A stretch of DNA of 64,000 nt from Escherichia phage Paul, in the sequence record NC_070992.1; one strand, given 5' to 3'. A program made the translations under genes and the position numbers. A model generated the notes under the pieces. The model was not told where the DNA came from. It was given only the letters and a program-made list of their open reading frames with translations, and made no database searches. Shown piece by piece: positions 34,728 through 35,754 of this stretch (its first letter is position 1; every line of letters starts with the position of its first letter).

Positions 34728-35110
34728 TCTCCAGTGATTTCCATATCTGCCTTATCTCCCTTCTTAGTAAGGAGGATTGCTGGTTTATTCTTACTCTTCA
34801 TATACTCAAACATGTGCATAGAGCCTCTTGACTCTCCATCCCAGAAGACTATTACTGCATCTGAATACTCGCCCATATCTACGTTTCGAAGTATCCCAGC
34901 CTTTTTGCCGAGAGTATTCCAAGAAGGAATGAAACGTTTAATGAGGATATCGTTATGCTTAGCGACAACCTCTCCGTGAAGGTCTGGACCTCTTGCACCA
35001 CCTGACACTACTTCTGAAACGAGCTTAGGGATTTCCTCTGGAAGTAAAGCCCACATCTGAGTGAAAGAATGCCAGTCTATCGACCGGCTTCCTGCGATTA
35101 TTACTTTCAT
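34718..35110 (-). CDS. SLOG/DUF2493-like Rossmann-fold protein (130 aa)
   Basis: N-terminal KVIIAGSR motif. Confidence 0.4.
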
Positions 35111-35754
35111 GTAATCAATCCTTGAAACTCTTCTTTATCAAAGTGCTTCTCTACTACATATTCATACAGATCTTTTAACTCTGCATAACGACGGTAGAAA
35201 GTTCCATGTGACATGCCAATAGTTTTCTGAATGTGATCATGGGGAATACCCAAGAAGATCATTGAGAACATATTGGCTAACTTCTGAGTGTCCATCGTAT
35301 CACTTAAATCTTGGAAGAAGTAGAAGATACGAGACTCCATGAACGGGTCTCCAACAGAATCTTGCTTATCCATAGCAATCTCTAAAGGACTATCCACCAT
35401 ATCAGGGGTACGGAACATATCAGCCTCTGGAATAGAGTAGATACGACGGTCCCCTACAGTCTGCCTATTTGAACGTATAGACCAGATAATGTTCTTGACT
35501 CGATAAGTCATATGCTCTTGGTCTTTCTCATCCTCTAGGACTCTCTCATCCTGCTTAGCGAAGACAAATCTCCAAGCGTTCAAGAGCACTTCTTGTGCCA
35601 CATCTTCTGCTTCGTGATAATCCCTGATATCATACATGAAGAACTTATGAACCACTTTCCAGTTCACTCTGTAAAACTCTTCATAGTTTGAGATATATTT
35701 AATAGGGATTCCATGAATTCGATATCTTGTAGGTGTTGTTTTCTTCGCCATCAT
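35107..35754 (-). CDS. phage-encoded ECF-like sigma factor
   Basis: region-2-like [16 protein letters not shown] and C-terminal HTH-like [16 protein letters not shown]. Confidence 0.5.

Follow-up and report, generated by a model that had tools for sequence, protein, structure and literature searches.

A gp36-type sigma factor gene, its partner gp79 and their promoters in the genome of Escherichia phage Paul

[quoted passage not shown] Together with E. coli core enzyme, gp36 forms a holoenzyme that is active in vitro on phage middle and late promoters. P26 and P68 are transcribed by the core enzyme with gp36, and a second phage protein, gp79, stimulates this activity 3- to 4-fold (PMC12276001). 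Gp79 inhibits the sigma-70 and sigma-S holoenzymes, whose transcription it nearly abolishes in vitro, and it stabilises gp36 and co-activates the gp36 holoenzyme (PMC12276001). It binds to the outside of the RNA polymerase (RNAP) clamp: when gp36 is absent, helix 1 of gp79 reaches into the RNA channel, where it displaces sigma4, and with gp36 present, gp79 docks on the C-terminal domain of gp36 (PMC12276001). Mass spectrometry of RNAP from infected cells revealed gp36 and gp79, and no others, as bound proteins (PMC12276001).

The arrangement of these components is known from a 3.4 Å cryo-EM open complex of E. coli RNAP, gp36, gp79 and a phage promoter, P68 (PDB 9M7Y; PMC12276001). In this structure, the N-terminal domain of gp36 binds the RNAP clamp helices via an acidic helix and recognises and melts the -10-like AATGTA; A-14, A-13, T-12 and G-11 are read by N95, S91, S94, E79 and H80, and W90 and Y83 hold the upstream fork. 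The linker runs through the active-centre cleft like sigma region 3.2, and the C-terminal domain is bound to the tip helix of the beta flap, to helix 1 of gp79 and to the promoter -35 region, where R187 and Y186 touch G-37 and the partner of A-34 (PMC12276001). Six gp36-dependent promoters (P6, P13, P26, P40, P58 and P68) share the single element tAATGTAtA, with transcription starting 6 to 8 bp downstream of it, and were described as single-element promoters without a -35 element (PMC8948821).

Two further phage systems are similar in part. Salmonella phage 7-11, from a related group of elongated-head phages, encodes the sigma factor SaPh711_gp47, which works with the host core and has the same genomic role and promoter positions as gp36, but shares only ~15% identity with it and uses a bipartite promoter, GTAAtg-(16)-aCTA; phage 7-11 also lacks a gp79 homologue, a middle gene class and host shut-off (PMC8948821). 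The pair gp36/gp79 resembles AsiA/MotA of phage T4 in that a small protein disables region 4 of sigma-70 and aids a phage specificity factor (PMC12276001). In T4, however, the host sigma stays and is remodelled, whereas with gp36/gp79 its function is replaced by a phage sigma. The sigma factor gene, its partner gp79, the six promoters and the atomic structure on E. coli RNAP are thus already known. Here, we compare them with their counterparts in Escherichia phage Paul (NC_070992.1), of which a stretch of 64 kb was analysed as a whole (hereafter, the window).

The sigma factor gene and its product

The gene, the parts of its product and the gene of its partner are located as follows.

35107 to 35751, minus strand: phage sigma factor gene, assigned as the phiEco32 gp36 ortholog; 214 aa, stop at 35107-35109
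35443 to 35751, minus strand: N-terminal domain, residues 1-103, sigma2-like (limits from PMC12276001)
35341 to 35442, minus strand: linker, residues 104-137, identical to the PDB 9M7Y chain (role from PMC12276001)
35110 to 35340, minus strand: C-terminal domain, residues 138-214, sigma4-like and compact (PMC12276001)
55009 to 55257, minus strand: gp79 gene, 82 aa, identical to phiEco32 gp79 at 82/82 positions (tblastn)

The minus-strand open reading frame (ORF) 35107..35754, which the initial annotation had taken for a sigma factor gene, is uninterrupted over 215 codons and opens with two adjacent ATGs preceded by AAGGAAAG. The upstream in-frame ATG (35752-35754) yields the 215-aa ORF and the second one the 214-aa product of 35107..35751; the second ATG is the start used both by the phiEco32 GenBank annotation and in the PDB construct. 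The TGA stop and the start codon of the next gene (34718..35110, minus strand) overlap as ATGA. This downstream gene is annotated as "GTP-binding" or "DUF2493" in relatives, and its product showed a weak, sub-threshold match to YspA/SLOG (PF10686, E=1e-4). The upstream neighbour (35774-36214) encodes a macro-domain protein (PF01661, E=4.5e-9).

The 214-aa protein shared 213 of 214 residues with PDB 9M7Y chain F (99.5% identity; E=2.6e-145). The sole difference from phiEco32 gp36 is an arginine in place of lysine at residue 27 (214-aa numbering), a conservative substitution outside the listed contact residues. All 23 residues named as contacting RNAP, DNA or gp79 (PMC12276001) were present, i.e., D44, E47, E49, D50, E54, E79, H80, Y83, R84, W90, S91, S94 and N95 in the N-terminal domain, and M138, I142, F146, M164, F166, L167, I169, Y186, R187 and F204 in the C-terminal domain. 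In PHROGs, the protein matched phrog_1740 "RNA polymerase sigma factor" over aa 1-214 (E=6.3e-46). The sigma factor ORF proved to be real. Its phiEco32 counterpart, phi32_36, is annotated as "RNA polymerase ECF sigma factor" and has a macro-domain gene upstream and gene 35 downstream. Gene order (macro-domain gene, gene 36, gene 35, with the ATGA overlap), the gp79 partner and the six promoter elements are the same in both phages; the genomes have diverged by ~5%, with a few gene replacements, such as a 212-aa ORF at 37848..38486. By tblastn, 97 phage records carry a gp36 copy with 80 to 100% identity, and the DNA around the sigma factor gene is 94 to 95% identical to phiEco32, SU10, NJ01, KM01, MN03 and ~90 others, all of them Escherichia and Shigella phages of the Gordonclarkvirinae.

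General profiles detected the sigma factor character far less readily. Sigma70_r2 of Pfam matched aa 25-63 with 19.1 bits (E=0.0012), below its gathering score of 24, and NCBIfam TIGR02937 (sigma70-ECF) aligned aa 24-193 to model positions 3-157 of 165 with 23 bits (E=4.9e-5), below its cut-off of 42.9 bits. This sub-threshold TIGR02937 alignment spans both the region 2 and the region 4 stretches, and in a dozen ECF subfamily models of NCBIfam the match was confined to the region 2 stretch. No Pfam region 4 model matched anywhere in the 214-aa protein. Of the two sigma-70 regions proposed initially, the profile searches hence recovered region 2, below threshold, while region 4 was covered solely by the sub-threshold TIGR02937 alignment. 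Both nonetheless hold: the segment resembling region 2 is sigma2-like in the 9M7Y structure, and the C-terminal helix-turn-helix resembling region 4 is known from that solved structure of a 99.5%-identical protein (chain F), not from profiles. A search of the PDB with phmmer (E<=10) retrieved no sigma factor besides 9M7Y, but just a TetR-family regulator (E=1.3), so that the position of the protein among bacterial sigmas is beyond the reach of simple sequence searches. A single-sequence AlphaFold2 model of the 214-aa protein (mean pLDDT 43.1, pTM 0.35) was too poor for an assessment of the fold. From its near-identity to chain F, the window product is almost certainly the ortholog of phiEco32 gp36, the Kuravirus sigma factor, and a two-domain protein of the sigma-70 superfamily that has diverged very far.

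The partner protein, which had been left unmentioned initially and refines the first account, is also encoded in the window, with 100% identity, 19 kb away from the sigma factor gene. It matches PDB 9M7Y chain G and 9M7Z. Weak matches of gp79 to TAL effectors were disregarded, as no single matched stretch passed the threshold.

Promoter elements in the window

The recurring motif noticed in the initial annotation turned out to be the gp36 promoter element tAATGTAtA, which is present at all six expected positions.

1417 to 1425, plus strand: P6 (late), TAATGTAGA, directly after a terminator-like hairpin; matches the published TAATGTAgA
9987 to 9995, plus strand: P13 (late), TAATGTATA, 34 nt upstream of the ATG at 10029
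27741 to 27749, plus strand: P26 (late), TAATGTATA, upstream of a 1473-aa virion gene
37573 to 37581, minus strand: P40 (middle), TAATGTATA, the nearest co-oriented gp36-type promoter upstream of the sigma factor gene
43811 to 43819, minus strand: P58 (middle), TAATGTATA
48838 to 48868, minus strand: P68 (middle), AAATGTATA at 48838-48846 and an upstream box, GGTAGTAGATAT, at 48857-48868

These six elements reproduce the published table exactly, with P6 and P68 carrying the published one-base variants. Exact copies of TAATGTATA occurred five times in the window, compared to 0.74 expected, a number reached in none of 100 shuffles. All five were intergenic, and four of them are located upstream of the orthologs of genes 13, 26, 40 and 58. 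With one mismatch allowed, there was no enrichment (23 hits versus 18.4 expected). Since one-mismatch hits are at chance level, only the exact matches and the two published variants at the expected intergenic positions are meaningful. One such one-mismatch hit lies at the left end of the window and is followed, at ~60-110 on the plus strand, by short direct repeats of ACGGGGA(A/G) (cacggggaaag ... aacggggag ... cacggggaaag), which may belong to the genome terminus or a terminal-repeat region.

When the sites were aligned by their element, T(-38) and A(-34) were invariant in 7/7, with purines at -37 and -36 (e.g., 9949-9953 and 48869-48873); P68 has both G(-37) and A(-34). No such bias from -38 to -34 was seen in the sixteen remaining one-mismatch hits. 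The pattern amounts to a weak -35 element, which fits the R187 and Y186 contacts in PDB 9M7Y, and the conservation of -38 and -34 softens the older view of gp36 promoters without a -35 element.

At P26, the longest ORF of the 1473-aa virion gene begins at an ATG within the promoter element (27743-27790, plus strand). The PHROG alignment starts at residue 16 of this longest ORF, and phiEco32 gp26 begins 15 codons later, at 27788, after a Shine-Dalgarno sequence. Judged from these alignments, 27788 is probably the true start of the gene.

P40 and gene 36 are co-oriented on the minus strand, with the gene downstream of the promoter, which suggests positive feedback on gp36 synthesis. How much of the P40-driven transcription reaches gene 36 is uncertain, because a terminator-like hairpin (36728..36745) directly follows gene 40. 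By read-through past this hairpin, gp36 could boost its own synthesis, and the first gp36 molecules would come from read-through of transcripts starting farther upstream. A private promoter of gene 36 was considered at 35818 (minus strand), where a one-mismatch TAATGTATA site is located 64 nt upstream of the gene, and was dropped as a likely chance match. A scan for sigma-70-type promoters around the sigma factor gene yielded five sites, i.e., fewer than in shuffles (9.4).

A promoter-like site divergent from P40

The fifth exact copy of TAATGTATA, at 37645 on the plus strand, falls within the 334-bp intergenic region between genes 40 and 41 and is part of a composite site.

37623 to 37653, plus strand: seventh gp36-type promoter-like site, GGTAGTAGATAT-N11-AATGTATA, element at 37645

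The site is placed back-to-back with P40, i.e., divergent from it, and is oriented opposite to the middle genes. It shares with P68 both the upstream box, GGTAGTAGATAT (37623..37634), and the spacing. When it was aligned with phiEco32 and the Suseptimavirus phages SU7 and ECBP2, whose gp36 is ~80% identical to that encoded in the window, both boxes were invariant while the spacer had diverged. A scan of IMG/VR for the P68-type pattern returned 10 DNA stretches from 6 contigs and added little diversity. The site is absent from the two published promoter lists consulted, and may have been mentioned earlier in the primary phiEco32 literature. We regard it as a candidate for an unreported, divergent gp36-dependent promoter.

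Downstream of the site, the segment 37662..37815 (plus strand) contains no ORF of at least 40 aa, and no ATG was seen on reading the sequence. This non-coding block is mostly near-invariant between Kuravirus and Suseptimavirus, and more conserved than gp36 itself (~80% at the amino acid level); in ECBP2, part of the block is diverged and contains an insertion. Within the block lies a long hairpin, AATAGAGAAT...ATTCTCTATT, with TTTTTAT after it on the minus strand, and this structure resembles an intrinsic terminator of the upstream minus-strand genes. Rfam returned nothing credible for the gene 40/41 intergenic region (best match, 6A RNA, E=0.76). It is possible, if on balance doubtful, that the gp36 holoenzyme fires from 37623..37653 on the plus strand and produces a non-coding RNA that first crosses the near-invariant ~150-nt block and, farther on, is antisense to the middle and early genes upstream. 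This RNA could have a regulatory or antisense function, or could prime replication. For groups with a gp36/gp79 in vitro system, the site offers a cheap, testable lead.

Next to the conserved intergenic block, the 212-aa ORF mentioned above (37848-38486, minus strand; ...GDGHLGH...GNHD...) lies where phiEco32 has the small genes 41-47, and SU7 and ECBP2 carry a gene annotated as "serine/threonine protein phosphatase" at this place. This looks like a mosaic gene replacement.

Polymerase usage and relation to ECF sigma factors

The absence of a phage RNA polymerase, as claimed initially for the window, was borne out by a PHROGs scan of its 27 ORFs of at least 250 aa, none of which matched an RNA polymerase family. 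These ORFs include terminase, portal, scaffold, capsid, tail, tail-fibre, transglycosylase and ejection proteins, as well as exonuclease, DNA polymerase, nucleotidyltransferase, primase/helicase and amidoligase-type enzymes. Four large proteins were without PHROG function.

27788 to 32209, plus strand: 1473 aa
26065 to 27720, plus strand: 551 aa
61546 to 62517, minus strand: 323 aa
62528 to 63721, minus strand: 397 aa

Searched against Pfam at E<=0.1, these four proteins gave no match. The window covers 64 kb of a genome of ~77 kb, and the phiEco32 equivalent of the ~13 kb outside it holds short early genes only, with ORFs of up to ~300 aa. Polymerase labels do occur in the phiEco32 RefSeq record, where the 42-aa phi32_50 is called "RNA polymerase" and the 87-aa phi32_127 "polymerase". 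On profile evidence, the label of phi32_50 is unsupported, because the 42-aa product of its ortholog in the window (40020..40145, minus strand) matched solely a PHROG of unknown function.

One might still suppose that part of the programme is run by a cryptic phage RNAP hidden in a large virion protein, e.g., the 1473-aa one (27788..32209), with gp36 as an accessory. Such an enzyme would be comparable to the virion RNA polymerases known from N4 and crAss-like phages. The four ORFs of 323 to 1473 aa without an annotated family leave room for it, and the 1473-aa gene closes the virion/ejection module, at the place where the virion RNA polymerases of other podoviruses are encoded. We consider this very improbable, as none of the four ORFs is similar to any polymerase family of PHROGs or Pfam, the published division assigns early genes to the sigma-70 holoenzyme and middle and late genes to the gp36 holoenzyme (PMC8948821, PMC12276001), and gp36 and gp79 were the only proteins found on RNAP from infected cells (PMC12276001). 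That the protein is an ordinary helix-turn-helix regulator binding DNA alone, and not a sigma subunit, as the missing Pfam region 4 match, the sub-threshold Sigma70_r2 score and the TetR-family regulator as sole other PDB match at E<=10 (E=1.3) might suggest, is hardly credible, given that a 99.5%-identical protein occupies the sigma position on core RNAP and gives promoter-specific initiation in vitro, that the acidic residues for clamp binding are conserved, as are W90 and Y83, which act in melting, and that core RNAP with phiEco32 gp36 alone initiates at P26 and P68 (PMC12276001).

We therefore retain the reading of the window product as a sigma subunit of the host enzyme. The redirection of host RNAP to middle and late genes, which the initial annotation had proposed, is experimentally established for phiEco32 gp36 and was transferred to Paul by near-identity. 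The following course is likewise experimental for phiEco32, and is carried over here by the 99.5% identity of gp36, the 100% identity of gp79 and the identical promoter elements. Early after infection, the host sigma-70 holoenzyme would read the early genes, and gp36 and the small gp79 would then be made as middle-gene products. Gp79 would bind to the outer clamp and insert its N-terminal helix into the RNA exit channel, so that region 4 of sigma-70 or sigma-S would be displaced and host and early phage transcription turned off. On the core enzyme, gp36 would bind with its N-terminal domain at the clamp helices, its linker in the active-site cleft and its C-terminal domain at the flap tip helix, with helix 1 of gp79 holding the C-terminal domain on the flap tip helix. 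The N-terminal domain would read AATGTA at -14 to -9, with DNA melting from -11, and the C-terminal domain would contact the -35 region (G-37 and A-34). Finally, the gp36 holoenzyme would read the middle and late genes from P6, P13, P26, P40, P58 and P68.

The protein had initially been called ECF-like, and this designation stands for the two-domain architecture, but not for family membership. Like ECF (group 4) sigmas, gp36 has ~200 aa with sigma2-like and sigma4-like domains and a cleft-threading linker, and contacts the clamp helices and the flap tip helix (PMC12276001). The length of 214 aa and the span of the sub-threshold TIGR02937 alignment (aa 24-193) fit regions 2 and 4 only, without regions 1.1 or 3. 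In contrast to ECF sigmas, the window protein scored below the curated cut-offs of Sigma70_r2 and TIGR02937 and had no match to Sigma70_r4 or Sigma70_r4_2. In the structure, N-terminal helix 1 of gp36 is rotated by ~70 degrees, and the sigma4-like domain, which is more compact, holds the flap tip helix in a different orientation (PMC12276001).

The promoters and the genomic surroundings differ as well. Bipartite ECF promoters have a conserved -35 "AAC" and a -10 "CGT"-type element, whereas gp36 promoters are dominated by the one element AATGTA (-14 to -9), with G at -11, and those in the window carry upstream of it just T(-38), purines at -37 and -36, and A(-34). A cognate anti-sigma factor next to an ECF gene is typical, though not universal. 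None adjoins the sigma factor gene of Paul, which has the macro-domain protein and the YspA/SLOG-like protein as neighbours, and the partner of gp36, gp79, is a co-activator. Because of the scores below cut-off, the different promoter type and the lack of an adjacent anti-sigma factor, gp36 is not a member of the ECF family; "ECF" is an architectural analogy, and gp36 represents a family within the sigma-70 superfamily with an ECF-like layout.

If the transcript proposed for the seventh site were real, the regulon of the phage sigma factor would include an RNA-level switch. As a whole, the window can be annotated with confidence as that of a Kuravirus with a host-RNAP-dependent transcription programme based on sigma replacement.
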